This document shows positions 3,301-61,450 of a stretch of 64,000 nt of DNA, one piece after another. The position numbers were made by a program, and so were the translations under genes. The stretch spans positions 9,978 to 73,977 of the forward strand of contig JBAZBR010000002.1 of assembly GCA_041671325.1 (NCBI GenBank), given 5' to 3'. Under the pieces are notes generated by a model, which saw only the letters and a program-made list of their open reading frames with translations, was not told the DNA's origin and did no database searches. Numbering within the stretch: the stretch's first letter is position 1; each line of letters opens with the position of its first letter. Source of the DNA: Patescibacteria group bacterium (GTDB lineage: Bacteria; Patescibacteriota; Patescibacteriia; PEXW01).

Positions 3301-4620
3301 CAGTTAAACCAAGAATACACTCAGGCTGAACAGCATACCAAAGCTGAAGAAGACAACCTCAAGCGCCTGCAGACCATTTCTAAAGGCAAGGTGGATAAGC
3401 TGATGGGTGATTATAATTCCTTGAATCAGCAACGGCAAACAACGACAGATCCCAGGCAGGCTTCTGAGTATGCCCGGCAAATGAACGCCATCAACGGCCA
3501 AGTCCAGGCCGAGAAAAATAAAGTTTCGGAGCAGCAAAAACGAGTTGAAGCCAGCCGCCAGAATTTTGCGGAAAAGCAGAAACAATTAAGCTTGCAAAAT
3601 TCATTGACTAAGAAATTTGAAGCCGAACAGGCCGCCAAAGAAGCAGGCTATGCCGCGACCATTCCTGGCCAGAAAAATGAAGTCCAACAGGAAAGAATGG
3701 AAGCTGAAAAAGTTCTGCCCGGCATCAATCAAAAGTTTGAGCAGAAAAAGACGGTGGCAGAAAAAGCCTTTGCTGAGCTGGAAGAATTTCAAAAGGGAAA
3801 AGAGATGAATCCGGAAATTAGAAAAATGCTTAAAGATGCTGAAGCCAGCAGAAAGGGTAAACATAAGAAAACTTTGAAATATCAGCTTGGCAAGGCTGAA
3901 AATCTTGCCTCCGCGATTCCATTTGAGGAGCGATACACTGTTGCGGGGACAGGCAAAGCCGATCCTGAGTTGCAACAAAAAATTAGATCTGCCGCTCAAG
4001 CTCAAGCTGAATTTGAACAAGCTGAACAAGAAAAAGCCAGTCAAGACGCTAAAGTCAATGCTTTGAAGACAAGGGAAGCGCAATTGCAAGGGGCGCAAAA
4101 AGCCGCCAGGCCAGTTGCGCCAAAAGCTGTCCCGCCTCCAGTTGCGCAGCCAGCCGTTTCAAAACCAGCCCCTCGCCAAGCAACCGCAGCTAGAACCGTT
4201 ACTCAACCGGCTGCTAAAGCGCCAGAAAAGTCGGTTGCAGAAGCTGAGGCCCCGGCAACGCCAATATCGGTAGAGCAGGTAAATAGGAATAACACTATTA
4301 TTCACGAAGAAATAAAAGGTGCTATGCCCAAGGCGCCCAGCGATTTACGTGATATATTTAAGGTTAATCCAGCGTCATATGACAATCTTTTAAGGCAAAT
4401 TCCTTTTATGAGAGAGTTGAATAATCGTTTGAGGTTTGGTTTTGAAAAAATGTTCAAAGCTAGTAATGTTTCTGATATTACCCAAGAAGCAATTCGGAAA
4501 CAGCTTGCTAATTTACAAAAACACACTAATAACAATGATAGCGACAGTTATAGGGAAGAATTGAAAAAACTGCATGGATTAATTAGTTCCAATTCCGGCG
4601 GAGCAAGCGAAGAAGAGTAA
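301..4620 (+). CDS. TrbL/VirB6-like polytopic membrane protein (N-terminal ~300 aa with multiple TM helices) followed by a ~1100-aa charged, coiled-coil-rich (K/E/Q/A) C-terminal extension with Pro/Ala-rich tail
   Basis: Multi-TM N-terminus with VirB6-like hydrophobic pattern, then long low-complexity coiled-coil region. Lies in an operon with VirB3/VirB4-like genes. Confidence 0.5.
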   Translation: MLNRLRLMLNWLKKNPAKGSLLVLPIIAVLVYILVPHSARAAITFEGAIVGVLGWIFSFFVYILGNILVKFIDLLVWVAQYNDFINAEAVRVGWTVVRDLANMFFIVALLVISFGTVFRIQEYRYNRLLSKVIIMAVLINFSKMIAAFFIDVSQVIMLTFVNAFKDMAAGNLTSGFGIDNIVSFSQDVSAQGGDISVTSVAGAMFAAVIMLFVATVVVAIFTLYLVQRIVMLWIYIILSPMAYMLAVFPGSLGSFWSTWWRDFTQYVIRGPVIAFFLWLALTIISLSQATSTGTILGTNPNESQVGQLGGGVDVSEQQKDLSATASKATTSANILNYLMAVGLLVAGLMQTAKAGGAAGSVAGKWMGNFQKWGGAMATSPIGMAKGVLKRPAYGVAGAALGTAARLPLVGTTFGKLNARMQRQRQRAEEKDTDWINYADERTVKRLALAQINLTEGGRKESKIARERLLKKNELKNYKTEDQDRVLNDYRRDIGYKEKERSHGDFHVSYRDSYGGQILEDAYRKNPSLRGRGYAGASPSKQAYLDAEMKKLAQRMTLDDFAKSEPKSWEDNAANAPWLAQALPILDARLGATGSEFLHRFDANVPESVKDTIRTTMGGRGYTTAFQEEIDQEMQKRTAEQVAEYEARGLDFHESAEYRAAPKGTYYDKNTYGLNERQRQRVEERMKLTKEQGDADLTAGISMFAKGSSNMLAVDQDVLDKAGIKLAAGGHVKDKRQLTQLAGALSEKLNSDITDIEGQISGIALEEADMEQPTGMDASGRQMTQADQNPQRMQEIAARREALEAKRENFVQARNRLQSGKGLEDMQFINKDSYVGNRWNLIAEEATHKKMDQMDPDGSFRKGLMGNMSPEEIQSITQAMRAKTGDETLSDERAFEEYLTKGLVNVRGEKYADTMPDAVKLKSGLALDIKRQAEAKGVKISMAGLEPEEIEAPGKVGGVSSRLGALGRKVTQPYREVREASQKSQIARSAEATMASQEKLDQLNQEYTQAEQHTKAEEDNLKRLQTISKGKVDKLMGDYNSLNQQRQTTTDPRQASEYARQMNAINGQVQAEKNKVSEQQKRVEASRQNFAEKQKQLSLQNSLTKKFEAEQAAKEAGYAATIPGQKNEVQQERMEAEKVLPGINQKFEQKKTVAEKAFAELEEFQKGKEMNPEIRKMLKDAEASRKGKHKKTLKYQLGKAENLASAIPFEERYTVAGTGKADPELQQKIRSAAQAQAEFEQAEQEKASQDAKVNALKTREAQLQGAQKAARPVAPKAVPPPVAQPAVSKPAPRQATAARTVTQPAAKAPEKSVAEAEAPATPISVEQVNRNNTIIHEEIKGAMPKAPSDLRDIFKVNPASYDNLLRQIPFMRELNNRLRFGFEKMFKASNVSDITQEAIRKQLANLQKHTNNNDSDSYREELKKLHGLISSNSGGASEEE

Positions 4621-4628
4621 TATTTTAG

Positions 4629-4781
4629 CCCCTCTCCTATATAGGAGAGGGTGGCCACTGGCCGGGTAAGGTGGGGAAAAACGTAATCCAATTATTCTGA
4701 GCGCCCTCACCCCCGCTTCCTGCCCACCGTACTTCGTCTGCGAAGGCAGGCGGGCGCGTACCCTCTCCCAGAGGGAGAGGG
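4629..4781. repeat. solo GC-rich palindromic repeat cluster (MITE-like) with the same end motifs as the DUF559 elements
   Basis: Contains cccctctcctatataggagagggtgg, ggtaaggtgggg, ccctcaccc and ccctctcccagagggagaggg. Confidence 0.6.
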
Positions 4782-4835
4782 ATTAAAAAATAAGATTTTT
4801 CGACTTCGCTCGTAAAGACAAATTAAAAAAATAAA

Positions 4836-6188
4836 ATGCCAGATTCCTTATTATTAAAATTTCAAAAGTTACCCGATTTGACCAAATCTCGCGCTTCCGA
4901 CCCGGAAGCCATGCGGGTGCTTGACCAATTGGAAAAAGATTTCAGCTTAAACTTGGCTGAATTAGTCATGCGGGTTTTAGTTAAGGAAGTTGCACCGGAA
5001 AAAATTGACGAAGCTTTGAATTTGCAATATTCAGTCGACAGAACCAAAGCCAAGGAGGTTGCTCAAGCCATGCTGGATCGTCTATTTTTCCATTTTCATC
5101 TCTTGGAATTGCCAGATGTTTCCCAAGACAAATCTAAAGAAGGCGAACCTTTAAAACCCCAAAGCGGGGCAAATCCCTATTTGGTTCATCCAGATGATGA
5201 AAAAGATATTTTAACCCATCAAAAATTTCTGCAAAATCCCCCTGCCCAGACAGTCGATACTGATTTTGAAAAGGTGGTCAACCGGATTGTCCAAATGGAA
5301 AGGCTGCAATTGGATGAGATTACCAAGCGGCGCTTTGAAAAAGTTATTGAATCAAGGCTGGTAGACGTTAGGGATAAATTAGAAACCAGGGATATTCTGG
5401 TCCGATCGGAAAAAATTGGCGGCATGGGTTTTGATGATGCCAGGGCTGAAAGGATTGTTGCTGAATTGGAAAGGGTGGTTGAAGAAATTCACCGTCGGCC
5501 TAAGCCTGTGATTGAAAAACCAAAACCAGCCATTCAACCAAAACCAATTCCTCCTCCACCCCCACCCCCGCCTAAAGTTCAGGTTGATCTGAAACCAAAG
5601 GCCGAAAACGAAATTCCTAAACCAGTTCCGAAACCAGTCATGCCAAAACCACCCGAAATCCAATCAACACCAGTTTCAATTTCTACCATTGAAAAACCAA
5701 AAAAGATTGTGGCGCCGCCACCCTGGTTCAGGCCATCAAATATCCCCGCAGTTGCTCAGCCCAGCCAGCCAGTGCAGTCAGCGGTTACGTTCAAGCCAAA
5801 ACCAATTGCCCCGCCCCAACCCAGCTACCAAGAAATGGTTACCGATGTTCGGGCACCGGTTAAGGTAATGGGCCCGATTGAAGTTTTAGCCAGCCTGACT
5901 TTGGAAGATTTTCGGAGGTTAGGCGTTGACCCAGAAGCCAGAACTAAAAAAATTATTGATGAAATTGAAGCCTTAGGTAAAGATTCTTTTGGCCAAAAAG
6001 CGGCCGGTATCCAAGCTTGGCGAAAATCCCCGACTTTCCAAAATTACCTTCAGATCGGGCAAATGGCCATGGAAAAGAAAGAGGATTTAACTGACATTAT
6101 CCAGTTGTTAAAAGCCCAGGGCAAGCCCTCTTTAGGTACGGATGAATTTGAGGCTATTGGCGCCCTCATGAGGCAATTTAGATTTTAA
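4836..6188 (+). CDS. hypothetical proline-rich protein (PKP/PPPPPPPP tract) with no TM segment
   Basis: 450-aa ORF with ATG start, in operon context. Confidence 0.5.
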   Translation: MPDSLLLKFQKLPDLTKSRASDPEAMRVLDQLEKDFSLNLAELVMRVLVKEVAPEKIDEALNLQYSVDRTKAKEVAQAMLDRLFFHFHLLELPDVSQDKSKEGEPLKPQSGANPYLVHPDDEKDILTHQKFLQNPPAQTVDTDFEKVVNRIVQMERLQLDEITKRRFEKVIESRLVDVRDKLETRDILVRSEKIGGMGFDDARAERIVAELERVVEEIHRRPKPVIEKPKPAIQPKPIPPPPPPPPKVQVDLKPKAENEIPKPVPKPVMPKPPEIQSTPVSISTIEKPKKIVAPPPWFRPSNIPAVAQPSQPVQSAVTFKPKPIAPPQPSYQEMVTDVRAPVKVMGPIEVLASLTLEDFRRLGVDPEARTKKIIDEIEALGKDSFGQKAAGIQAWRKSPTFQNYLQIGQMAMEKKEDLTDIIQLLKAQGKPSLGTDEFEAIGALMRQFRF

Positions 6189-7326: not shown

Positions 7327-9224
7327 TGGCCATTAATTTATCCAAAAAACCCAAGGCAATGCAAGCGGAAACCCTTCCGCCTGTTCAAATTATGACTGAG
7401 GAAGAGGTGCAGCAGCAGTCAGGAATTGAATTGCAACGGAAGCGGGAAATGCTTGAGGCCGAAAGAATTTACCGCCGGGGCGTGGTTTCGGTTAGGGATT
7501 TTATTGCCCCGGCCTCGTTCAAAGTTTCAGCCAAAGAGGTGGAAATCGGCGGCAAGCTAGCCCGAACCATGTTCATCGTCACCTACCCTCGGTATATTGC
7601 CGTGGGTTGGTTTGCCCCAATTATTAATTTGAACGTGCCTTTGGATGTTTCCATGTTTTTCTACCCCGTCGGTTCAGAAGTGGTGCTCAAGCAATTACGC
7701 AATAAGGTAGGCCAATTGGAAGCCCAAATTTTATCAGATGCGGAAAAAGGCGCGCCCCGCGATCCAATTCGGGAAACGGCCTTGCGGGACATTGAACAGC
7801 TCCGCGATAATTTGACCCAAGGTACGGAAAAATTTTTCCAAGTTGCGCTTTATGTAACTCTTTATGGCGATAATAAAGAGGATTTGGACAAGCTCAGCGA
7901 TAAGGTCGAGTCTATGTTTGGCTCTAAATTGGTTTTTAGCAAGCGCGTCCTATACCAGGCTGAGCAAGGTTTTAATTCAACCTTACCCATTGGCAAAGAT
8001 GAATTGCAGGTATATTTCAACATGAATTCTTCGCCAGCGGCCAGCAGTTTCCCTTTTATTTCTTCAGATGTTTCTTCAGACAATGGCATACTTTATGGCA
8101 TTAACCGCCATAATAATTCTTTGATCCTATTTGACCGCTTTAGCCTGCAAAACGCGAATTTTGTGGTTTTTGCCACTTCTGGTGCGGGCAAAAGCTATGC
8201 CGTCAAGTTGGAAATACTCCGTTCGCTCATGGTTGGCACGGATGTTATCGTCATTGACCCTGAAAGGGAATATAAATATTTATCCGATGCGGTTGGCGGC
8301 ACTTATATCAACATCTCCTTGAATTCTGAATCAAAAATCAATCCCTTTGATTTGCCTCGGGCGGTTGGCGGCGCGGAAAAACCAGCAGACATCATCCGGG
8401 CCGCGGTCATTACTTTAAAAGGCATGTTGCGGCTTATGCTAGGCACCGTAACTCCAGAGGAAGATTCAATCATCGATCGGGCCTTGATTGAAACCTATGC
8501 CAAAAAAGACATAACTGCCGAATCCGATCTGACTACGGTTGAACCGCCATTGATGGCGGATTTCCAAGAGGTTTTATCCGGCATGGTTGGCGCTGAAGGC
8601 ATAACTGAAAGGATTAAAAAATACACCGAAGGCACCTTTTCCGGCCTCTTTAACAGTCCCACCAATATTGAACTCAGGAACCAGTTAGTCACCTTTTCCG
8701 TAAGGGATTTGGAAGATGAATTAAGGCCGATTGGCATTTCCATCATCGTCTCTTATATTTGGAATGTAGTCAGGTCGCAGCTGAAAAAGAGGATTTTGGT
8801 TATTGATGAAGCCTGGTGGCTGATGCAGAACGAAGATTCGGCCAAATTCATTTATGCTTTGGTTAAACGCTGCCGGAAATATTATTTGGGTGTCACGACC
8901 ATAACCCAAGACGTGAATGATTTCTTGCGTTCGCCCTATGGCCAGGCCATTGTCACTAATTCGGCTTTGCAGCTGCTCATGAAACAGTCGCCCGCGGGCA
9001 TTGATATGATCGCCAAGACTTTCATGCTGACCCAAGGTGAAAAATATTTATTGCTGGAAGCCGCGGTTGGCGAAGGTATATTTTTTGCCGGGCCCAAGCA
9101 TGCGGCCATAAAAGTCGTGGCTTCGTACACAGAAGACCAAATAATCACCTCTGACCCCAGGCAGCTTTTGGAAATCGAGGCGGCCAAAAAGGAATTTAAT
9201 GAAAGCAATCCCCAATCCAGTTAA
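7326..9224 (+). CDS. virB4: VirB4/TraC/TrbE-family T4SS ATPase, C-terminal ATPase portion
   Basis: Walker A FATSGAGKSY. VIDPEREY and VIDEAWW (Walker B-like) motifs. Architecture typical of VirB4. Confidence 0.8.
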   Translation: MAINLSKKPKAMQAETLPPVQIMTEEEVQQQSGIELQRKREMLEAERIYRRGVVSVRDFIAPASFKVSAKEVEIGGKLARTMFIVTYPRYIAVGWFAPIINLNVPLDVSMFFYPVGSEVVLKQLRNKVGQLEAQILSDAEKGAPRDPIRETALRDIEQLRDNLTQGTEKFFQVALYVTLYGDNKEDLDKLSDKVESMFGSKLVFSKRVLYQAEQGFNSTLPIGKDELQVYFNMNSSPAASSFPFISSDVSSDNGILYGINRHNNSLILFDRFSLQNANFVVFATSGAGKSYAVKLEILRSLMVGTDVIVIDPEREYKYLSDAVGGTYINISLNSESKINPFDLPRAVGGAEKPADIIRAAVITLKGMLRLMLGTVTPEEDSIIDRALIETYAKKDITAESDLTTVEPPLMADFQEVLSGMVGAEGITERIKKYTEGTFSGLFNSPTNIELRNQLVTFSVRDLEDELRPIGISIIVSYIWNVVRSQLKKRILVIDEAWWLMQNEDSAKFIYALVKRCRKYYLGVTTITQDVNDFLRSPYGQAIVTNSALQLLMKQSPAGIDMIAKTFMLTQGEKYLLLEAAVGEGIFFAGPKHAAIKVVASYTEDQIITSDPRQLLEIEAAKKEFNESNPQSS

Positions 9225-20598: not shown

Positions 20599-20868
20599 TT
20601 AAATTTCGGATTTAGTAAAATATTCTATCAGCATGGTACGTATTGTCGTTTTACCTTTTGCTGTTTTGAAGTATTTTTCCCTTCGTAGTGCATCATATTT
20701 ATTGGCATAAGCTTCAAAAAAAATTAAATCAAATGGTATACGCGGTTTTGTGGACGGAACCTTGCCTGAATTGTGCTGAATGAGTCGGTTAAATACATTA
20801 TCCGTAAAACCGATATAAAGACGTTTATCGCGCTTGCTTTGTAAAATGTAAACATAGAAATATTTCAT
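20599..20868 (-). CDS. stand-alone GIY-YIG nuclease family protein (90 aa)
   Basis: MKYFYVYILQS...LYIGFTDNVFNRLIQHN GIY-YIG motif. The ORF-track version (to 21018) reads through the tRNA; the internal Met at 20868 was chosen as start. Confidence 0.7.
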   Translation of the reverse strand: MKYFYVYILQSKRDKRLYIGFTDNVFNRLIQHNSGKVPSTKPRIPFDLIFFEAYANKYDALRREKYFKTAKGKTTIRTMLIEYFTKSEI

Positions 20869-20905
20869 AACATTTATAGTCAATGCAATGCACTGGGTGG
20901 CGGAG

Positions 20906-20927
20906 CCATGCACCGTACGGTGCATGG
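20906..20927. repeat. 20-bp perfect palindrome CATGCACCGTACGGTGCATG fused to the CCA end of tRNA-Ser(GCT). A second copy at 23039-23058 is fused to the tRNA-Ser pseudo-copy.
   Basis: Identical 20-mer at both loci, each immediately 3' of ...CTCTCCGCCA. Confidence 0.6.
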
Positions 20928-21016
20928 CGGAGAGTAGAGGATTCGAACCTCTGCGGGACTTTTTAGATCCCCGCGGTTTAGCAAACCGCTGCCTTAAGCC
21001 GCTCGGCCAACTCTCC
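20926..21016 (-). tRNA. tRNA-Ser (anticodon GCT), type II with long variable arm, CCA encoded
   Basis: GGAGAGTTGGCCGAGCGG...anticodon loop TTGCTAA...GGTTCGAATCC...ACTCTCCGCCA. Cloverleaf folds manually. Confidence 0.8.
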
Positions 21017-48653: not shown

Positions 48654-49380
48654 TCCTCTCCTCACAGAAGAGGATGCCGGAGGCAGGAGGGGTTTGTGGT
48701 AAATATGCAAGAAATTAGCATAAAAAGAGCCAGGCAATTACGAAAAAAATTAACACCATCAGAAGTAAAAATGTGGTCATTATTGCGGAATAAGCGATTT
48801 CTTAATTATAAATTTTACCGTCAGTTTCCTGTGGGACCATATATTACAGATTTTTGCTGTCGGAGCAGGAAGCTAATAATAGAAATTGACGGGGGTGGCC
48901 ATGCCATTCAGAAACAGAGTATAAAAGACGAATATAGAAATAAATATTTAGTTAAATGCGGATTTCGCGTGATGAGAATCTGGTCCAATGAGCTGTTTAG
49001 TAACATTGACGGGGTAATGGAAGGGGTTTTAATAGAATTGCAAAAACAATAAATCTATTTGCCTTTGATCATTCCCCTCACCCGGCCTACGGCCACCCTC
49101 TCCCAGAGGGAGAGGGAGATAAAGAACGGTTCCTCTCCTCCGCCAGAGGCGGACAGGCAGAAGGAGAGGGGGTAGTTGAATAGTCCTCTCCTCACAGGAG
49201 AGGATGCCGGAGGCAGGAGAGGTTCATGGTTATTATATAAGAAGCCATTATTAAGTAAGACAGACAATTATTATAAGTTCAATAGAATTAGAAAAAAACA
49301 ACAGACTTTCTTGATTTTCAAACACCTCCCTCACCCGGCCTACGGCTACCCTCTCCCGCCAGGGGAGAGGGAGGAATAGG
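48654..49380 (+). mobile_element. DUF559 element 1: a DUF559 gene preceded by a palindromic 5' module and followed by a cluster of GC-rich palindromes. The unit is bracketed by 51-bp imperfect direct repeats (48654-48704 and 49184-49234).
   Basis: Direct repeats tcctctcctcacag[a/g]agaggatgccggaggcaggag[g/a]gg... Inverted motif pair ggtgagg/cctcacc and cctctcc/ggagagg at both ends. Confidence 0.5.
48705..49052 (+). CDS. DUF559 domain protein (Vsr-like PD-(D/E)xK endonuclease fold), copy 1
   Basis: Conserved (Y/F)DFCC...IE(I/V)DGG(G/Q)H...(I/F)W(S/N)N(E/D) pattern shared with the copies at 53121 and 61073. Confidence 0.75.
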   Translation: MQEISIKRARQLRKKLTPSEVKMWSLLRNKRFLNYKFYRQFPVGPYITDFCCRSRKLIIEIDGGGHAIQKQSIKDEYRNKYLVKCGFRVMRIWSNELFSNIDGVMEGVLIELQKQ

Positions 49381-52903: not shown

Positions 52904-53039
52904 AATTTTTGAAAAGCAAGATTGCCGCGCTTCCTTGTAAGAGCGAGGTCGCTCGCAATGACCGATCTTTAATCAACCGTCTTTGCGAGTCCCGCAGCCG
53001 CGGCAGGGACGGGAAAGGAGGGAGAAAGTAAGGCAATGG

Positions 53040-53505
53040 TTATATTTATCCTCCTCTCCGCCTTTTAGGGGGAGAGGATGTCCCGAGCAAAGTCGAGGGA
53101 CAGGTGAGGTGGTAAGTATTATGAAACTGAAACCATTAACCATAAAAGCAAAGAGGCTTAGGCAAAGGCAAACTCCGCAAGAAGTAAAATTATGGTCAAG
53201 ACTTAAAAACAGACAATGCTCTGGCTATAAATTTAGGCGGCAAGTACATCTAGGCAAGTATATTGTTGATTTCTATTGTCCAGAGAAAAAATTTATTGTT
53301 GAAGTTGATGGGGGTCAGCATAGTCATGAACGATTTTCTAAGCGTGATTCATTTAGGAGTAATTATCTGAAAAACCAAGGATGCAAAGTTATCCGATTTT
53401 GGAACAATGATATTGATTCAAATTTAGAAGGTGTTTATCAAGTAATTCTTGATTTTCTAAGTTCCCCCTCACCTCTATCTCCTCTCCCGCGAGAGGAGAG
53501 GAGGA
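53040..53505 (+). mobile_element. DUF559 element 2, with a 5' palindromic module (53040-53120) and a 3' palindromic module (53464-53505)
   Basis: Same architecture as element 1. ggacaggtgaggtgg 5' and ccctcacc...ctcctctcccgcgagaggagagg 3'. Confidence 0.5.
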
Positions 53506-53516
53506 ATGAAAGGTAA
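53121..53516 (+). CDS. DUF559 domain protein, copy 2
   Basis: Start at ATG 53121 with AGGTGAGGTGG SD-like sequence. Conserved DUF559 motifs. Confidence 0.75.
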   Translation: MKLKPLTIKAKRLRQRQTPQEVKLWSRLKNRQCSGYKFRRQVHLGKYIVDFYCPEKKFIVEVDGGQHSHERFSKRDSFRSNYLKNQGCKVIRFWNNDIDSNLEGVYQVILDFLSSPSPLSPLPREERRNER

Positions 53517-53535: not shown

Positions 53536-54303
53536 ATGAACATAATTGCTTACATATTTATTTTTCTCCTCGGCCTCTGCATTGGCAGTTTTTTAAATGT
53601 GGTGATTTTGCGCTTGCCCAAGAAAAAGAAATTTTTGAAATTAAACCAAAGGTCAAAATGTCCAAAGTGCCGGCACGCTTTGCGTTTTTTGGATTTGGTT
53701 CCGCTTTTTAGTTTTCTATTTCTGAAATTCCGCTGCCGATATTGCCACAAAAAAATCAGCTGGCAATATCCTTTGGTGGAATTTTTAACCGCGCTGTTTT
53801 TTGCCTTAATTTTTTGGCAATACGGTTTGACTTGGGTAGCATTGATTGGCTTTATTGGCGCAGGGTTTTTAATGGCTTTAGCTTTTATTGACGGAAAATT
53901 CCAAATTGTCCCAGACAGCATAAGCCTGCCAGGAATAATTATAATTTTAGTATTGCAGCTTTTGACCAATTTTAAAGATTGGCAAAGCTTGCTTCTTGGC
54001 TTGCTACTTGGCTCAACCTGGTTTTTACTGCAGTGGGTGGTTTCCAAAGGCAAATGGGTGGGTAGCGGCGATATCCGCATTGGTGCTTTATTAGGAGTAT
54101 TCTTGGGTTTCTGGGGTACTGCCTTGGCGCTTTTCGCTTCCTATTTTATGGGCAGCCTCTGGGCAATATATTTGCTTTCCAGAGGCAAAGCCAAGTTAAA
54201 AAGCAAGATCCCCTTTGGCGTGTTTTTGGGGATTTTTGGCATTTTAGCCTTTATTTTTGGGCCTGAAGTGGTATCCTGGTATAAGGGGATTATCGGTTTG
54301 TAA
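53536..54303 (+). CDS. pilD: prepilin peptidase PilD (A24 family)
   Basis: N-terminal CxxC...CxxC zinc module. Multiple TM. Conserved Asp-containing motifs. Confidence 0.85.
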   Translation: MNIIAYIFIFLLGLCIGSFLNVVILRLPKKKKFLKLNQRSKCPKCRHALRFLDLVPLFSFLFLKFRCRYCHKKISWQYPLVEFLTALFFALIFWQYGLTWVALIGFIGAGFLMALAFIDGKFQIVPDSISLPGIIIILVLQLLTNFKDWQSLLLGLLLGSTWFLLQWVVSKGKWVGSGDIRIGALLGVFLGFWGTALALFASYFMGSLWAIYLLSRGKAKLKSKIPFGVFLGIFGILAFIFGPEVVSWYKGIIGL

Positions 54304-54340
54304 ATCCAGCACCACTTTTCAACAAAACATTAAAAAATTC

Positions 54341-55243
54341 ATGGCTAAATTGAAAAAAGGATTTTCAATCCTGGAAATATTAGTGACTATAGGCATCACT
54401 GCGCTCCTAATGGGCGTGGTCATTGGCAATTACCGCCGGGGCGGCGATGACAGTATTTTGGAAAAAGAAATCAACTTGCTTATGACCAGAGTTAGGCTGA
54501 CCCAGGAACAGACTGCCGGCGGGACAACCGGAAAATATTGCGAAAATCCAAATTATGGCAAAACTTGCAGTGTAGATTCGGATTGTCCTTCATCAACAAC
54601 TTGTTTGGAGGCTGATACGCCAAAAGGCGGTTATGCAATAGTTTTTAATTGTGACCCGAGTTATCAGTGGGGTTTGGATTATCCAAAAATGGACGTAATG
54701 GATGATGTAACCGAAACCAATACTACCCCTTATTTTATTTTTGGCGATAGGCTTTCCTGTAATTCTAATTGTTTTAATAATTTAAATTTTGATTGGTCTT
54801 ATATAGACTCTGATGGCCTGATAACTCTGATAAATTCTTCTCCTATGATAAACCCTCCTACCATAGGAGACACCCTGGTTAATACTTATGAGCTGGATAA
54901 TAAATTAGTGTTTAAAGATTTGCAGATAGTTTCCTCTAATTTAGAAATGTATTCTTGTAAATCAATTAATTTGTCAGATTTGAGAGGGAGGCCGGTTCCA
55001 GACCACGGTGTTGTTCCCGCGGAGTATCCCTTACAAGCGACAATCAGGTTTAAACCGCCAGACGGCAGGCAATTGGAAATTACTGATGGCGTTAGGACAC
55101 AAACACCTGGCGGAAATAATTGGCAGAAAGTAAGCGTAATGTTCGGCTTAAAAGACCGGAATACGGATTGCAAAATCGTGTCAATTAGCAAAGACGGATT
55201 TATTACTAAAGATAATGATCCGAATTGCAGTTTTGAGAGTTAA
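54341..55243 (+). CDS. minor pilin-like protein (MAKLKKG|FSILEILVTIGITAL)
   Basis: Class III signal at ATG 54341. The ORF track starts at 54257, upstream of the likely start. Confidence 0.75.
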   Translation: MAKLKKGFSILEILVTIGITALLMGVVIGNYRRGGDDSILEKEINLLMTRVRLTQEQTAGGTTGKYCENPNYGKTCSVDSDCPSSTTCLEADTPKGGYAIVFNCDPSYQWGLDYPKMDVMDDVTETNTTPYFIFGDRLSCNSNCFNNLNFDWSYIDSDGLITLINSSPMINPPTIGDTLVNTYELDNKLVFKDLQIVSSNLEMYSCKSINLSDLRGRPVPDHGVVPAEYPLQATIRFKPPDGRQLEITDGVRTQTPGGNNWQKVSVMFGLKDRNTDCKIVSISKDGFITKDNDPNCSFES

Positions 55244-55298
55244 TTTCTAAAAGTTAAAAAATAATTAATAAACAAAGAAATAGACAATTAAAGAGTTT

Positions 55299-55405
55299 AT
55301 CCAGCACCACTTTTCAATAATACGCTATAAATATCACTATGAATTTTGACCAGAAAAAAATCAATAACCAGCACGAAAGACCTTTTTTGAAAAGTGGTGC
55401 TGGAT
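55299..55405. repeat. perfect 19-bp inverted repeat (atccagcaccacttttcaa ... ttgaaaagtggtgctggat) flanking the start codon and leader-coding region of the minor pilin gene
   Basis: Exact reverse complements at 55299-55317 and 55387-55405. Further copies at 54304-54322, 57847-57863 and 57955-57974/57978-57997. Confidence 0.7.
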
Positions 55406-56343
55406 TTACCTTGATTGAAACCCTGGTAGCGATGGGGATTATGCTGGCTTTATTGTCCGTGATTTTGGCGAATTACCGGCGGGGCAATGATGACAGCGTC
55501 TTAAACCGGGAAACCGCAATGTTAATGTCTAATATCAGGTTAGCACAGGAAGAAACCGCGGCTGGCCAAATTTTACGTTTTTGCACTACTAATATTGGGC
55601 AAACCTGTAAAACCGATTCAGATTGTCCGACGGGCGATACCTGTAATCCAACCCAAGAAACTCCTAAAGGTGGATATGGGATTGTTTTAGGTTGCAAGAA
55701 TGGTACTGTTGTGGGTACGACGTTGCCGTGGATTGAGCATGGGGTGGATATCAGTAACCCGAATAATCCAAATGCTTATTTTTTATACGGTGATAACCTG
55801 AGCTGTGTTGGCTCAACAGCGTACAATTCTTGCTTTCCGATGAATCCTTTACTTTATAACCCCAATGGTCCGACTTCATATGACAGGAGAATTGGCAGCT
55901 GGCAAACTGGTGAGAATTATGGTGATACTTTGGAAAAAGAAGTAGTATTGAATGATAAAGTTAAGATTAAAGATTTTAAATTAACCAGGGGAACTGATTC
56001 AAACCTGACTTATTATACATGCGATGTATCGAATACTGGTCTTAGCGCAGATCATTATTCCCCTTGGAGCCTGTCCGGTGCTATTATTCCAGGAATTAAT
56101 ACTGTTGTTCCAGCAAATTATCCTTTGCAATTATATATCAATTTTTCTCCGCCTACTGGCAGACAAACATACATCTCTGATAATATTGAATATTTTTTGC
56201 CTGGCGGACCTAACTTGACAGACATCTGGCTTAAAGCGGAAATTATGCTGGGGGTAAAAAACCGTGATACTGACTGCCAGGTTGTTACTGTTACTAAAGA
56301 GGGCATGATCAGCCGGTCAGTCGATGCGGATTGTAAATTTTAG
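55339..56343 (+). CDS. minor pilin-like protein with long leader (MNFDQKKINNQHERPFLKSGAG|FTLIETLVAMGIM)
   Basis: Class III signal. Possible alternative TTG start at 55387 giving the leader MKSGAG. Confidence 0.75.
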   Translation: MNFDQKKINNQHERPFLKSGAGFTLIETLVAMGIMLALLSVILANYRRGNDDSVLNRETAMLMSNIRLAQEETAAGQILRFCTTNIGQTCKTDSDCPTGDTCNPTQETPKGGYGIVLGCKNGTVVGTTLPWIEHGVDISNPNNPNAYFLYGDNLSCVGSTAYNSCFPMNPLLYNPNGPTSYDRRIGSWQTGENYGDTLEKEVVLNDKVKIKDFKLTRGTDSNLTYYTCDVSNTGLSADHYSPWSLSGAIIPGINTVVPANYPLQLYINFSPPTGRQTYISDNIEYFLPGGPNLTDIWLKAEIMLGVKNRDTDCQVVTVTKEGMISRSVDADCKF

Positions 56344-56355
56344 GTTTTAATTAAA

Positions 56356-57456
56356 ATGAATTTTTTTGGCTTAAAAAAGAAAACCCATAAAGGCCAGACC
56401 CTCTTAGAAGCCATCATCGCCATTGGCGTGATTATGACTGGCGTAATTGGCTCTTTGGTTTTGGTTACCACGACCATAAAGCTTGGCCGGACAAACCAAG
56501 ACCGGGTCATTGCCCAAAATCTGGCCAGGGAAGGCATGGAATTGGTTTATAATCTCAGGAATTCCGCAACCCTAATGGGCATTGAATCGCCCTATATAAG
56601 CTGGGATTATTTTTTATACAAAAAAAAATCAAAAGCGGTCTTAGGCTATAAGGAATATTATGATATTGCCACTGGAGAAGGGACAGAATCTAGTCCTTGT
56701 GTTAACGCGCCAGATGTTAGTTCTAATGATAATAAACTGAATGACTGTGATGCAATAGTTATTGAAAAATACTTATTTGAACCACCAAATATTTTGCCTC
56801 CGATTTGTGAAGATTATCAATATCCCGTCCCAGGTACACCGCCCTATACAACAACTCCTTGTGATTTTAATGGCGATGACAAATTGAACATTACTGATGT
56901 GGTTTGGCTAATTAATTATATATATAGAAATTCTTACATTATGGCCTATGGCGGTTATCCGCAAATTTTGACAACTGTTGCCGGGAGCATTAAGCCTTAT
57001 GAAAAAATAGATTTTAATCAAGACAACAGCACTTTATTTTTTATCGGCACTGATCCGCTAGCAAATATTCCCGCAGCTTGGGAAGCCCCAACGGTTGATG
57101 ATCCTAACCTGATTGAAAAGAGAAGCCGGGTTTATAAATATAACAATACTTACACTCAAAATGTCCTTCCAGATACTACCCCTGGATTGGAAAAGACAAA
57201 ATTTTACCGCATGATAACCCTGCAATCTGTTTGCCGCGGAACACACAATGGTACTCCTGACACCACTGTTTTACTGCCAGTAGACTCAGTTCTCAATTGC
57301 TACGACTACGTGAGAACACAGGTTTGGAATGTTGCTGACGCTAACACCGTAAAAAAAGTCGGGATTTTAGCAAATGTTGAAGTTCGCTGGTCAACAGCCT
57401 TGAGTCCAACCAATGTCAAATACCAAGAATTTATTTACGATTGGATTAATTTTTAA
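56356..57456 (+). CDS. PilV-like minor pilin (leader ...KKTHKG|QTLLEAIIAIGV) carrying a dockerin-like Ca-binding repeat (DFNGDDKLNITDVVWLINYIY)
   Basis: PilV-type N-terminus. Dockerin type-I-like repeat. Confidence 0.6.
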   Translation: MNFFGLKKKTHKGQTLLEAIIAIGVIMTGVIGSLVLVTTTIKLGRTNQDRVIAQNLAREGMELVYNLRNSATLMGIESPYISWDYFLYKKKSKAVLGYKEYYDIATGEGTESSPCVNAPDVSSNDNKLNDCDAIVIEKYLFEPPNILPPICEDYQYPVPGTPPYTTTPCDFNGDDKLNITDVVWLINYIYRNSYIMAYGGYPQILTTVAGSIKPYEKIDFNQDNSTLFFIGTDPLANIPAAWEAPTVDDPNLIEKRSRVYKYNNTYTQNVLPDTTPGLEKTKFYRMITLQSVCRGTHNGTPDTTVLLPVDSVLNCYDYVRTQVWNVADANTVKKVGILANVEVRWSTALSPTNVKYQEFIYDWINF

Positions 57457-57494
57457 TCCCGCGCCAATTCATTTGAACGCTTAAACTGCCAACC

Positions 57495-57575
57495 ATGAAT
57501 TTTTACCGGCAAAAAATTGACAATCAACAAAAAAGACTTTCATTGAAAAGTGGTACGGGATTAATAAATGACTAG
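57495..57575 (+). pseudogene. decayed copy of the minor-pilin 5' module (MNFYRQKIDNQQKRLSLKSGTGLIND*), truncated after the leader
   Basis: Nucleotide similarity to 55339-55410 and 57886-57960. Stops after 26 codons. Confidence 0.45.
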
Positions 57576-57885
57576 ATTTGAAAAATGTATTTTGTCTATT
57601 TATTACGAAGCAAGAAAAATAAAGCAATTTACATTGGCTCCACCAATAATTTAAAATTGAGACTACGACAGCACAATAAAGGACTAGTGTTTTCAACAAA
57701 AAGATATATGCCTTGGGAATTAGTATATTATGAAGCATATAATAACGAAGGCCAAGCCCGTTTGCGGGAAAAGAGGCTTAAATACAATGGTAATGCTATT
57801 AGAGAATTAAAAAGAAGAGTTGGGTTGTGATAATTACATGGGTTTACCCAGCACCACTTTCCATAAAAATAATTAATAATAATTA
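57576..57885 (+). mobile_element. GIY-YIG nuclease gene inserted between tandem copies of the pilin 5' module
   Basis: Flanked by homologous leader-module copies at 57495-57575 and 57886-57960. Confidence 0.45.
57585..57830 (+). CDS. stand-alone GIY-YIG nuclease family protein (81 aa), paralogue of the 20599 gene
   Basis: MYFVYLLRSKKNKAIYIGSTNNLKLRLRQHN GIY-YIG motif. Confidence 0.7.
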   Translation: MYFVYLLRSKKNKAIYIGSTNNLKLRLRQHNKGLVFSTKRYMPWELVYYEAYNNEGQARLREKRLKYNGNAIRELKRRVGL

Positions 57886-57978
57886 ATGAGATTTTACTTG
57901 AAAAATATCCAAAATCACAAAAAAAGACTTTTTTTGAAAAAAAAGGTGGGATTTATCCAGCACCACTTTTCATTCCGA

Positions 57979-58743
57979 ATGAAAAGTGGTGCTGGATTCA
58001 CGCTTATTGAGGTCATTATTGCCATGGCGGTTTTTTCCGTTGCTATGGTTTTGGCAACCGCCACTTTTGTCTCTTTTGTCCAAAGCCAAAGAAGGACCAT
58101 TACCCAGCAGGAAATGCAAAATGATGCCCGCTCAGCCATTGAGGAAATCGCCCAGGTCTTAAGGGAAGGCGTGGTTGATTATGCTTATTATTCTACCAAT
58201 TTTACAGAACCAATTGAAAAAACCATACTTTTTGATTCTCTTGATGGCACGGGAAAAAAATGTTTGGCAATCCGGAGCGCTTTGAATGAATATTATTATT
58301 ATAAATTAGACGGCGGGGTAATAAAAAAATATTTTTCAGCTAGCCCTATCAGCACTTCTTGCGTTGGCGGCACGAACTGGTCGGTTGTAACACCAGAAAA
58401 TTTAACCATAACCAATTTCACTTTTTTAATCACCCCTTCCCAAAACCCATTTCAGGGTAAATCTTACCAAGCATGCGGAACCCCGGGGGCTCCGACTGCC
58501 TGCACCGAATGGGGGACTTATTGCAATGAAGATGGTAGTATCGATTGTGCTTACCAAAAAGGGACTTCCTGTTATTGCGTACCAAAAGTTTATGGTGATT
58601 TAATCCCTTTGCACCCAAAAGTCACTTTCAGTTTGACCGTATCCAGGAAAGCCAACCAGACCACGCTTTCAGAAACCTACCAAACCACCATAACCAGCCG
58701 GGTCTATAAGAATTTTGACCTTTTAAACCGCTATGCGCCTTAA
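57979..58743 (+). CDS. PilW-like minor pilin (MKSGAG|FTLIEVIIAMAVF). An alternative upstream start at 57886 would give a 41-aa leader.
   Basis: Class III signal. The start codon lies in the stem of a perfect 20-bp hairpin. Confidence 0.7.
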   Translation: MKSGAGFTLIEVIIAMAVFSVAMVLATATFVSFVQSQRRTITQQEMQNDARSAIEEIAQVLREGVVDYAYYSTNFTEPIEKTILFDSLDGTGKKCLAIRSALNEYYYYKLDGGVIKKYFSASPISTSCVGGTNWSVVTPENLTITNFTFLITPSQNPFQGKSYQACGTPGAPTACTEWGTYCNEDGSIDCAYQKGTSCYCVPKVYGDLIPLHPKVTFSLTVSRKANQTTLSETYQTTITSRVYKNFDLLNRYAP

Positions 58744-61002: not shown

Positions 61003-61450
61003 TTCCCTCTCCTCTGGCAGGAGAGGGAATCCCGCCAAATGGCGGGATGGGTGAGGAGGAAAACAATTATACATGAGAAAAATATTAACCAATAGAGCAA
61101 GGGTATTTCGAAAAAAACAAACTTCATCAGAGGCTATTTTGTGGCAAAATTTAAGAAATAAGAAACTATTAGGATATAAATTTTATCGGCAATACCCAAT
61201 TAATAACTATATTGTTGATTTTTGTTGTCCGATTAAACGGTTAATCATTGAAGTTGATGGTGGCGGTCATAATTATGACGAACAAAAAGCTAAAGATGAG
61301 ACCCGTGATATTTTTTTAAAAAAACAAAAATTTTATGTTTTAAGGTTTTGGAGTAACGATATTCATAAAAATTTATCCGGAGTAATGGAGACAATTTTTG
61401 ATTTTTTATCCCCCCTCTCCTTTGGTTCCTCCCCCGCATAAGGGGGGAGG
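61003..61450 (+). mobile_element. DUF559 element 3, with a 5' palindromic module (61003-61059) and a 3' palindromic module (61411-61450)
   Basis: ccctctcctctggcaggagaggg, cccgccaaatggcggg and gggtgaggagg at the 5' end. ccccctctcc...cccccgcataaggggggagg at the 3' end. Confidence 0.5.
61073..61441 (+). CDS. DUF559 domain protein, copy 3
   Basis: Conserved DUF559 motifs (YIVDFCCP, IEVDGGGH, RFWSND). Confidence 0.75.
   Translation: MRKILTNRARVFRKKQTSSEAILWQNLRNKKLLGYKFYRQYPINNYIVDFCCPIKRLIIEVDGGGHNYDEQKAKDETRDIFLKKQKFYVLRFWSNDIHKNLSGVMETIFDFLSPLSFGSSPA

Follow-up and report, generated by a model that had tools for sequence, protein, structure and literature searches.

Inverted repeats in the prepilin leaders of a Patescibacteria minor pilin operon as probable arms of a hairpin element associated with a small GIY-YIG nuclease

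Nuclease genes of the GIY-YIG family include free-standing or intron-less homing endonuclease genes, such as the Seg and Mob genes of phage T4 and I-TevI. The REP/REPIN repeats are hairpin repeats, often arranged as inverted doublets of ~100 nt, which are kept together with a single-copy, domesticated enzyme gene that they flank, that of RAYT (Y1). In Rickettsia, palindromic elements, which Ogata and colleagues are said to have described in 2000, are reportedly inserted in frame in protein genes. Ssn nucleases consist of a single GIY-YIG domain and are encoded by genes with hairpin repeats on their flanks, which the enzymes recognize in single-stranded DNA (ssDNA) (Chenal et al. 2025, PMC11893778). 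In the Candidate Phyla Radiation (CPR), GIY-YIG open reading frames (ORFs) are found in non-intron insertions at poorly conserved sites of rRNA genes (PMC11270868); the terms 'inverted repeat', 'palindrom' and 'hairpin' are all absent from the text of that paper, and no link to pilin genes was found described there. Here, we analyzed a minor pilin operon in a stretch of 64,000 nt from a Patescibacteria bacterium (hereafter the window), in which inverted copies of a sequence encoding the end of the prepilin leader lie upstream of pilin genes. Our analysis indicates that these copies are probably the arms of a hairpin repeat element cognate to a small GIY-YIG nuclease gene of the same operon.

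Inverted repeats and modules in the minor pilin operon

The 18-mer ATCCAGCACCACTTTTCA, designated arm A, occurs on the + strand perfectly at 54304, 55299 and 57955 and with two mismatches at 57846. Its complement TGAAAAGTGGTGCTGGAT, designated arm S, is perfect at 55388 and 57980 and has two mismatches at 57544. All seven matches fall within 54.3-58.0 kb, compared with 0.00 expected in 100 shuffles, which bears out the view of the initial annotation that chance occurrence is implausible. That annotation had also listed the three perfect A copies correctly, but it placed the fourth at 57847 with one mismatch and overlooked the S copy at 57544. Arm S codes for (L)KSGAG directly before the Phe+1 codon of the mature pilin and just ahead of the Gly/Phe cleavage site of the prepilin. 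Two perfect inverted repeats result. The first, of 19 bp, pairs 55299-55317 with 55387-55405 around a 69-nt spacer holding the ATG at 55339, and the second, of 21 bp, carries the ATG at 57979 and the MKSGAG codons in its 3' arm. The initial annotation had reported both, the latter as a hairpin at 57955/57978, and the former was recovered by a repeat search and the latter as a 21-bp palindrome (element E4 in Table 1).

Both inverted repeats fold far better than shuffled sequence does, as RNA and, on either strand, as DNA. As RNA, the first (module M2) reaches -36.3 kcal/mol (z = -6.1) and the E4 palindrome -48.1 kcal/mol (z about -6). As DNA, the short hairpin E4 folds at -22.5 kcal/mol on either strand (z = -11). 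The whole region is the same in L090, which was assembled independently from another sample, so the inverted copies are not an assembly artefact. The terminator scan listed no arm pair as an intrinsic terminator (GC-rich stem and T run), and coding sequence follows the stems; overall, the counts of the promoter and terminator scan stood at background level and were uninformative.

Direct-repeat families D1 and D4, together with a reading of the sequence, revealed a repeated module of ~103 nt, in which the inverted copies form the arms. It consists, in order, of the A arm, ~22 nt, an ATG, a long leader (MNFxxKKINNQxxRxF) and the S arm. This module, the orphan module E1 and the placement of the GIY-YIG gene between two modules had gone unmentioned in the initial annotation. 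The intact module M2 is formed by the 19-bp repeat, its loop encoding the leader MNFDQKKINNQHERPF and its S arm LKSGAG, and it has orthologues in four other loci (L001, L003, L030 and L044). In M1, the 3' arm has shrunk to TTGAAAAAAGGATTT (54350-54364) within the short leader of pilin 1; the pilin 1 orthologue P0006 has retained the full module and the long leader. Pilin 3 (56356-57456), which contains a dockerin type I domain (Pfam 4.6e-08) and whose junction, KG/QTLLE, is atypical, is the sole gene of the minor pilin run without a module in front, and the gap upstream of it is 12 nt.

The other modules are stacked between pilin 3 and pilin 4. In E1, the degenerate A arm overlaps the stop codon of pilin 3, the S arm (57544-57561) has two mismatches, and the orphan leader ORF (57495-57575) reads MNFYRQKIDNQQKRLSLKSGTGLIND before its stop. 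Between the GIY-YIG gene and E3, the junction CATGGGTTT (57837-57845) resembles what would be left of a 3' arm; the GGGTTT/A junction after the GIY-YIG gene is also found in L001 and L003. E3 comprises an A arm with two mismatches (57846-57863), a loop containing the ATG at 57886, and a degenerate S arm TTGAAAAAAAAGGTGGGATTT (57934-57954) encoding LKKKVGF. E4 inserts 45 nt in frame (IQHHFSFRMKSGAGF) between this older Gly-Phe pair (57949-57954) and the mature pilin 4, which starts at the Phe codon 57997-57999 (FTLIEVII...). Deletion of the 45 nt in silico gives back ...KKKVGF-TLIE, the ORF runs in frame through E3 and E4, and the ATG at 57979 within E4 is a second candidate start of pilin 4. 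E4 is a module with a collapsed loop, inserted in frame. At the position orthologous to E3 plus E4, L001 has two full-length modules in tandem, and the one at the E4 position (8449-8555) indicates that E4 has lost its loop.

Table 1 Features of the minor pilin operon and slots of the GIY-YIG gene
Feature	Position	Strand	Remarks
Prepilin peptidase PilD	53536-54303	+	Pfam A24_N_bact 3.6e-34, Peptidase_A24 1.6e-11
M1 A arm	54304-54321	+	Perfect 18-mer; first base directly after the PilD stop codon
Pilin 1 ORF	54341-55243	+	Short leader MAKLKKGF
M2, intact, fronting pilin 2	55299-55405	+	19-bp perfect inverted repeat; RNA fold
Pilin 2 ORF	55339-56343	+	Phe+1 codon 55405-55407, right after the S arm
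Orphan module E1 (M3), degenerate	57456-57561	+	Family D1, 77% identical to M2; no pilin body after it
GIY-YIG nuclease gene, 81 aa, intact	57585-57830	+	Pfam GIY-YIG 1.7e-18, residues 1-71
Module E3 (M4), degenerate	57846-57954	+	Families D1 and D4
Element E4, perfect 21-bp palindrome	57955-57997	+	Arms 57955-57975 and 57977-57997
Pilin 4 ORF as called, 285 aa	57886-58743	+	Leader crosses E3 and E4; Pfam N_methyl 5.1e-07 (57979-start version)
GIY-YIG slot, window	Between pilin 3 and pilin 4	+	
GIY-YIG slots, L001	Pilin 1/pilin 2 gap and pilin 2/pilin 2b gap		
GIY-YIG slot, L003	Between PilD and pilin 1		

Pili are a classic example of phase variation, and inverted repeats of 18-21 bp that bracket a short segment holding the ATG could in principle form an invertible switch, in which recombination between the arms flips the 69-nt segment and turns the minor pilins ON or OFF. 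Such a role, which the initial annotation had listed as one of its readings, is highly improbable. No recombinase was called from ~45 kb to the end of the window, nor in the related loci, and the collapsed form holds nothing to invert. In addition, every pilin-associated module seen across the lineages examined has its leader in the ON orientation, and the assemblies from two samples are identical.

Distribution and evolution of the modules and arms

The module precedes minor pilin genes in the window and in every related Patescibacteria locus retrieved. In the syntenic loci of two related species (L001, L002 and L006; L003, L004 and L005) it likewise fronts minor pilin genes. The start-to-start spacing in related loci is ~89 nt and the module length 101-104 nt. 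Homologues of pilin 2 from Parcubacteria and other Patescibacteria (37-51% identity) have mostly kept the long leader, and the same architecture appears in more distant CPR lineages (L072, L074, L080, L083 and L011). The pattern taken from the pilin alignment and used on genome contigs was the generic GFTLIE motif, which, among the matches listed, returned distant pilins only, including that of L011. This Levybacteria pilin contains an independent collapsed copy of 36 nt, KNKGF-IQHQLRRSGAGF-TLIE, and L083 contains a 104-nt module with in-frame read-through after MFVNFKKKKNHG. Across the module set listed, the arms measure 17-21 bp and the length is 97-104 nt in 20 of 22 modules. In collapsed and long modules alike, the frame is kept throughout and ends in G/F. 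A core of 14-16 nt in the arms is common to distant CPR lineages and to the rRNA and intergenic contexts described below.

We examined covariation in 30 distinct arm pairs from window-related and further loci. Paired positions made up 89.7% of cells, and double changes occurred in 9 of 20 pairs, for example CCAGC/GCTGG to CCCGC/GCGGG, and TTTTCA/TGAAAA to TTTCTA/TAGAAA, TTTTGA/TCAAAA or TTTTGC/GCAAAA. In the controls, none of 500 shuffles matched the observed score, and arms slid against each other were only 40-52% paired. Pairing of the arms therefore appears to be under selection. The loops behave differently from the pilin genes behind them. Five of the seven loops in L001 are 81-97% identical although the bodies of the paralogous pilins share only 49-55% identity, and the remaining two, which share 93% identity, make up a second subfamily. 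Across genomes, the bodies of orthologous pilin 4 proteins are 63-74% identical and the loops 49-79%, so that the loops diverge more between genomes than inside the main L001 subfamily. These identities indicate that, within a genome, replacement or conversion acts on the modules independently of the pilin genes behind them. At the sequence level, these comparisons establish the anatomy, distribution, covariation and concerted evolution of the module.

The initial annotation had also considered footprints of repeated recombination between pilin paralogues. The homogenization of modules within genomes, independent of the pilin bodies, agrees with recombination, but the modules are not inert scars since their arms keep pairing through compensatory changes. 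A broader version of this idea is that the copies are passive by-products of DNA metabolism, arising when synthesis switches template or folds back at a quasi-palindrome, when pilin paralogues undergo gene conversion, or by slippage, with neither a function nor a dedicated nuclease. A perfect palindrome with a centre of 1-3 nt is what template switching would produce, the tandem 41-nt units of L074 resemble slippage, and homogenization would follow from conversion. We nevertheless consider this improbable. The arm core of 14-16 nt is conserved over distant CPR lineages, rRNA and intergenic DNA, the compensatory changes preserve pairing across 103-nt modules, and one GIY-YIG subfamily is associated with the arms in every context examined at at least 63% identity.

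When metagenome contigs were searched with the arm pair, 51 loci were returned, which comprised further pilin modules and copies elsewhere. A CPR 23S rRNA gene (L052, the same as L027) contains four A/S hairpins, at 780-831, 930-1026, 1965-2048 and 2496-2801. According to the Rfam alignment, the first two are located at the tips of variable helices, as inserts of 34 and 82 nt in place of 7 and 5 nt in the consensus, and the third hairpin and an ORF-containing hairpin lie farther along the gene. One hairpin, with perfect 21-bp arms TCCAGCACCACTTTTTGATAT / ATATCAAAAAGTGGTGCTGGA, encloses a GIY-YIG ORF that is related to the window nuclease (phmmer E = 1e-13). In L041, a solitary module of 101 nt, with the direct repeat GGGTTGAC on its flanks, lies in the intergenic DNA that separates divergent genes. 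Further arm copies are present in L026 and L038. Those in L026 are tandem modules (5299-5398 and 5462-5563) with variant arms CCAGCCTCAC... / CCAGCCCCAC..., located just 3' of a large membrane-protein ORF (3730-5235) that, judged from its sequence, may encode a ComEC-like competence channel.

The occurrence of the arms in 23S rRNA and intergenic DNA, with unrelated loops, indicates that the arms are not dictated by pilin coding. The possibility that one element was copied everywhere was rejected: the loops of non-pilin copies are no closer to pilin loops than shuffled sequence is, and pilin and non-pilin copies have the arms and length alone in common. Many of the 51 loci belong to GC-rich families (TTGGACAGCGCCACTTTTCA..., GGTACCTGGCACCACTTTTCA...), which were set aside as chance and unrelated matches because they share only 12-13 nt with the arms, all forced by the search pattern. 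Several of these loci (L021, L023, L024, L029, L031, L032, L035, L036 and others) are GC-rich miniature elements of ~100 bp, whose termini start with TTGGACAGCGCCACTTTTCA and which have 4-bp NTAN target duplications.

The constant length of ~103 nt and the perfect terminal repeats are reminiscent of a conventional miniature transposable element, mobilized by a transposase elsewhere, for example from a Y1/IS200-type gene, with the GIY-YIG gene as cargo. A direct repeat (GGGTTGAC or GGNTTTAY) is found beside many copies, and a Y1_Tnp gene lies ~3 kb downstream in L001-L003. Against this, the loops are unrelated between contexts, unlike copies of a single element, and the tight link is to the GIY-YIG gene. 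Moreover, there is no clean target duplication, since the direct repeat beside the copies, GGNTT(T/G)AY, overlaps the arms. We therefore regard this origin as very unlikely. Y1_Tnp itself was discarded as the mobilizing enzyme: the gene has no flanking arms, and none was present from ~45 kb to the end of the window.

The GIY-YIG nuclease and its association with the arms

The window nuclease was predicted with AlphaFold (pLDDT 96.6) to be a bare GIY-YIG core of a single domain. Its nearest solved fold is the nuclease domain of Slx1, a structure-specific nuclease (TMq 0.76, 34% identity), and its best sequence matches in the PDB are Slx1 (E = 6e-4) and BH0048 (E = 0.64). We obtained 142 homologues, of which those with source names come mostly from CPR bacteria. 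Repeats bracket the gene on both sides, the orphan module E1 upstream and the modules at 57846-57997 downstream. Counterparts of this cassette are present in L001 (two) and L003, with a mean column identity of 77%. Each of the four cassettes consists of an orphan module, the ORF, '...ATGGGTTT' and the A arm of the next module. The four occupy four different slots (Table 1), and the remaining slots are empty in each genome.

The contexts of seven further homologues were examined, five at 63-69% identity and two at 51%. All five of the former, from Daviesbacteria, Levybacteria and three unclassified CPR sets, are located in a pilus cluster, and they are flanked by arms or by orphan leaders such as MKGF and MPKKGF. 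Thus, every homologue examined at at least 63% identity lies directly upstream of a pilin gene. The junctions in L074 read ATGAAGGGATTT / A - nuclease ORF - degenerate S...GGGTTT / A - degenerate S...GGGTTT / A - S...GGGTTT / ACTCTTATTGAG, which we read as the old leader MKGF, three stacked elements and then the mature FTLIE. Those in L072 read MPKKGF / A - nuclease - new ATG...GGGTTT / A - loop - S / FTLVE. Of the four readings offered by the initial annotation (occlusion of the start codon in RNA, inversion, recombination footprints and a target site of the adjacent GIY-YIG nuclease), the last is best supported, by this association.

Some nuclease copies are decaying. In L003, a stop at codon 3 interrupts the gene, and in L001 the second copy is truncated and lacks its N-terminal strand, a pattern that looks typical of selfish nuclease genes. 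The identity among nuclease copies is 68-73%, compared with 65-82% for PilD and LigA, which is about the host rate.

The perfect arms of L003, next to a broken nuclease copy, would also suit a host cis-regulatory hairpin in mRNA. In that case, a 5' arm in the untranslated region would pair with the leader-coding 3' arm and throttle or gate translation of the low-abundance minor pilins, or make an RNase III site against read-through, with the nuclease as a passenger. The predicted stems are highly stable, and their pairing is conserved and covaries across deep lineages. The stem of the collapsed form contains the ATG at 57979, and the same hairpins exist in 23S rRNA, which is necessarily transcribed and in which they are tolerated or excised like RNase III-processed intervening sequences. 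However, the start codon of the usual form lies unoccluded in the 69-nt loop, and orphan modules beside the nuclease are retained with no gene to regulate. The same arms, with unrelated loops, occur in non-pilin contexts. A bias towards G.U on the sense strand was not found among arm mismatches (6 sense vs 10 antisense), G.T and A.C being symmetric, and the promoter scan, uninformative as it was, lends no support to co-transcription of the 5' arm with the gene. We consider a regulatory hairpin unlikely as the explanation of the repeats, although a role of this kind is possible and does not exclude the nuclease-associated element favoured here.

Other small nuclease genes lie close to tRNA genes or hairpins. 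Both homologues at 51% identity (L086, ~2400-2830; L088, ~1550-1800) are beside a tRNA gene and a partial tRNA duplicate, and the duplicate in L086 is broken up by short hairpins such as ACCCAGCCCTTCGCGAAGGGCTGGGT. As at the pilin loci, the target gene is partly duplicated and an intact copy is kept downstream. The window contains a second GIY-YIG gene (20602-20855, - strand; region 20602-21016), related to the pilin-linked one (phmmer E = 2e-16). It directly follows a tRNA gene and resembles this tRNA-linked pair; it has no A/S arms. The hairpin CCATGCACCGTACGGTGCATGG lies between the tRNA and this gene, and the 8-nt direct repeat on its two sides, CTCCGCCA, equals the 3' end of the tRNA.

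A second hairpin family, CCTCTCC-N3..11-GGAGAGG, has 11 copies in the window compared with 0 expected (+ strand: 4631, 4762, 27382, 27477, 32508, 49097, 49185, 49350, 53053, 53481 and 61006). Six of them are located around three genes for DUF559 (Vsr-like endonuclease) proteins (48696-49052, 52983-53516 and 61073-61441), and no DUF559 gene was seen near the other five. These hairpins and DUF559 may be another pairing of a small nuclease with a cognate hairpin. The last of the three genes occupies the gap between the metallophosphatase gene and ligA, in which L001 (11850-12290), L002 (8609-9049) and L003 (7721-8161) have the Y1_Tnp (IS200/RAYT-like) gene. The slot therefore appears to be a hotspot for small nuclease genes.

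A proposed element of the prepilin leader and comparison with known systems

We propose, tentatively and with less confidence than in the pairing of arms and nuclease itself, that a selfish nuclease-plus-hairpin element uses the cleavable leader of type IV prepilins as its niche. It would target the near-universal Gly-Phe-Thr junction, bring its own ATG and leader and rebuild the peptidase site with its 3' arm, and the peptidase would remove its product in a manner reminiscent of an intron or intein. The element takes three forms: a bare hairpin of ~36-45 nt, the ~103-nt module with the ATG and leader in its loop, and a hairpin or module pair with the nuclease ORF. In prepilin genes, its copies stand exactly where leader and mature sequence join, after the Gly-Phe codon pair (GGN TTT). 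The 3' arm terminates in ...AAAAGTGGTGCTGGRTTT (also written ...GGTGCTGGRTTT), coding for KSGAG/F, and each copy would thereby rebuild both the peptidase site and the site for the next copy, which would explain the tandem stacking of E1-E4 upstream of pilin 4. The host PilD would cut off all leaders, including the residues encoded by the element. Since everything before the last Gly/Phe would be leader, the mature pilin would be unaltered and the insertion close to neutral. The nuclease presumably recognizes the arm sequence or the hairpin. Repair of the resulting break from an occupied copy could shift the nuclease gene between slots, and could also homogenize the modules and keep the arms complementary.

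Several observations weigh against this proposal. The consensus of the Ssn-related motif (SRM), HGTCWYN(0-2)YYVSBRHN(0-5)WNVSBRGN(0-2)RNCYNB, is absent from the 64-kb window (0 matches vs 0.1 in shuffles). The S arm and the GGN-TTT junction, a putative recognition site, are regenerated downstream of the nuclease gene; as insertion regenerates the presumed target, with no obvious self-immunity, the classic logic of homing does not seem to apply. The gene in the window is located between modules (S...gene...A), unlike the rRNA copy inside a hairpin (A...gene...S). In L003, the arms stay perfect though the sole visible nuclease copy is broken, which could mean that the hairpin is under host selection, for instance in RNA. 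Presence/absence polymorphism was not observed within a species, the second assembly being identical over the region. The nuclease diverges at about the host rate, a pattern explained equally well by vertical descent with rare moves and by active mobility, and tandem arrays such as that of L074 could have arisen by replication slippage.

If the proposal is correct, most minor pilins in several Patescibacteria lineages have, over time, come to owe their start codons and unusually long leaders to such elements, and the same element family also colonizes the tips of rRNA helices. Cleavage of a protein leader would then join RNA splicing and protein splicing as a harmless refuge for elements in essential conserved genes. 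It would also explain the long 'MNF..KK..KSGAGF' leaders, orphan mini-ORFs and ambiguous starts in CPR minor pilin operons, which matters for annotation. Type IV pili are central to the host attachment of ultrasmall episymbionts, in which natural competence is possible (PMC11623550, PMC10187176), and an element that rewrites and homogenizes the 5' ends of minor pilin genes could alter pilin expression and recombination. By analogy with the Ssn precedent, small single-domain GIY-YIG enzymes with long, simple hairpin targets might be attractive as ssDNA tools. Literature searches for work connecting pilin leaders with nucleases were negative, and as far as such searches show, the prepilin leader has not been described before as a niche of this kind.

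The feature is genuine and out of the ordinary. It probably represents a nuclease and its cognate hairpin repeats, or selfish DNA of the homing type, and it shares parts of its organization with each of the systems introduced above. Like REP/REPIN-RAYT, a comparison also drawn from the discussion in PMC11893778, it has hairpins in inverted doublets of ~100 nt that are kept with the nuclease gene they flank; in contrast, the enzyme is a GIY-YIG rather than an HUH/Y1 protein, one arm is coding, and the repeats are not dispersed through the window, all seven copies being in the pilin operon. Like the Rickettsia elements, short palindromes stand in frame in ORFs, and also in RNA genes, and are tolerated at permissive positions. 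Here, however, the permissive site is a leader removed by proteolysis, so that the mature protein should keep no extra residues, insertion takes place at one precise codon junction, and there is a candidate nuclease partner. The L052 arms resemble 23S intervening sequences in making extended stem-loops at the tips of variable helices, one of them around a GIY-YIG ORF, whereas the window copies are located in protein-coding leaders.

As with GIY-YIG homing genes, a small selfish nuclease gene lies beside a highly conserved segment of a target gene, occupies differing slots in related genomes with a pattern of gain, decay and loss of copies, and appears to co-convert flanking sequence. Unlike those genes, the window nuclease has no DNA-binding domain, its insertion regenerates the presumed target, and it comes with palindromic arms and with a duplicate of the 5' gene end, which restores expression. 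With Ssn, the window nuclease shares a small size (~80-95 aa, within the ~80-150 aa used to delimit the system), a single GIY-YIG domain with no separate DNA-binding domain, hairpin-forming repeats that bracket the gene in an insertion-sequence-like order of repeat, gene and repeat, clustering of the repeats at genes for surface structures, and a tie to organisms that depend on pili and DNA uptake. It differs from Ssn/SRM in that its arms are 17-21 bp long with loops of 1-300 nt, in place of repeats of 20-50 nt with 6-9-bp stems, and its repeats lie inside a coding leader, the hairpin motifs of Ssn (NTS) being rarely found in genes. By this analogy, our best reading is a selfish or homing-type hairpin and nuclease element in the cleavable leader, which may work like Ssn/SRM and is not filed as a member of the Ssn family.

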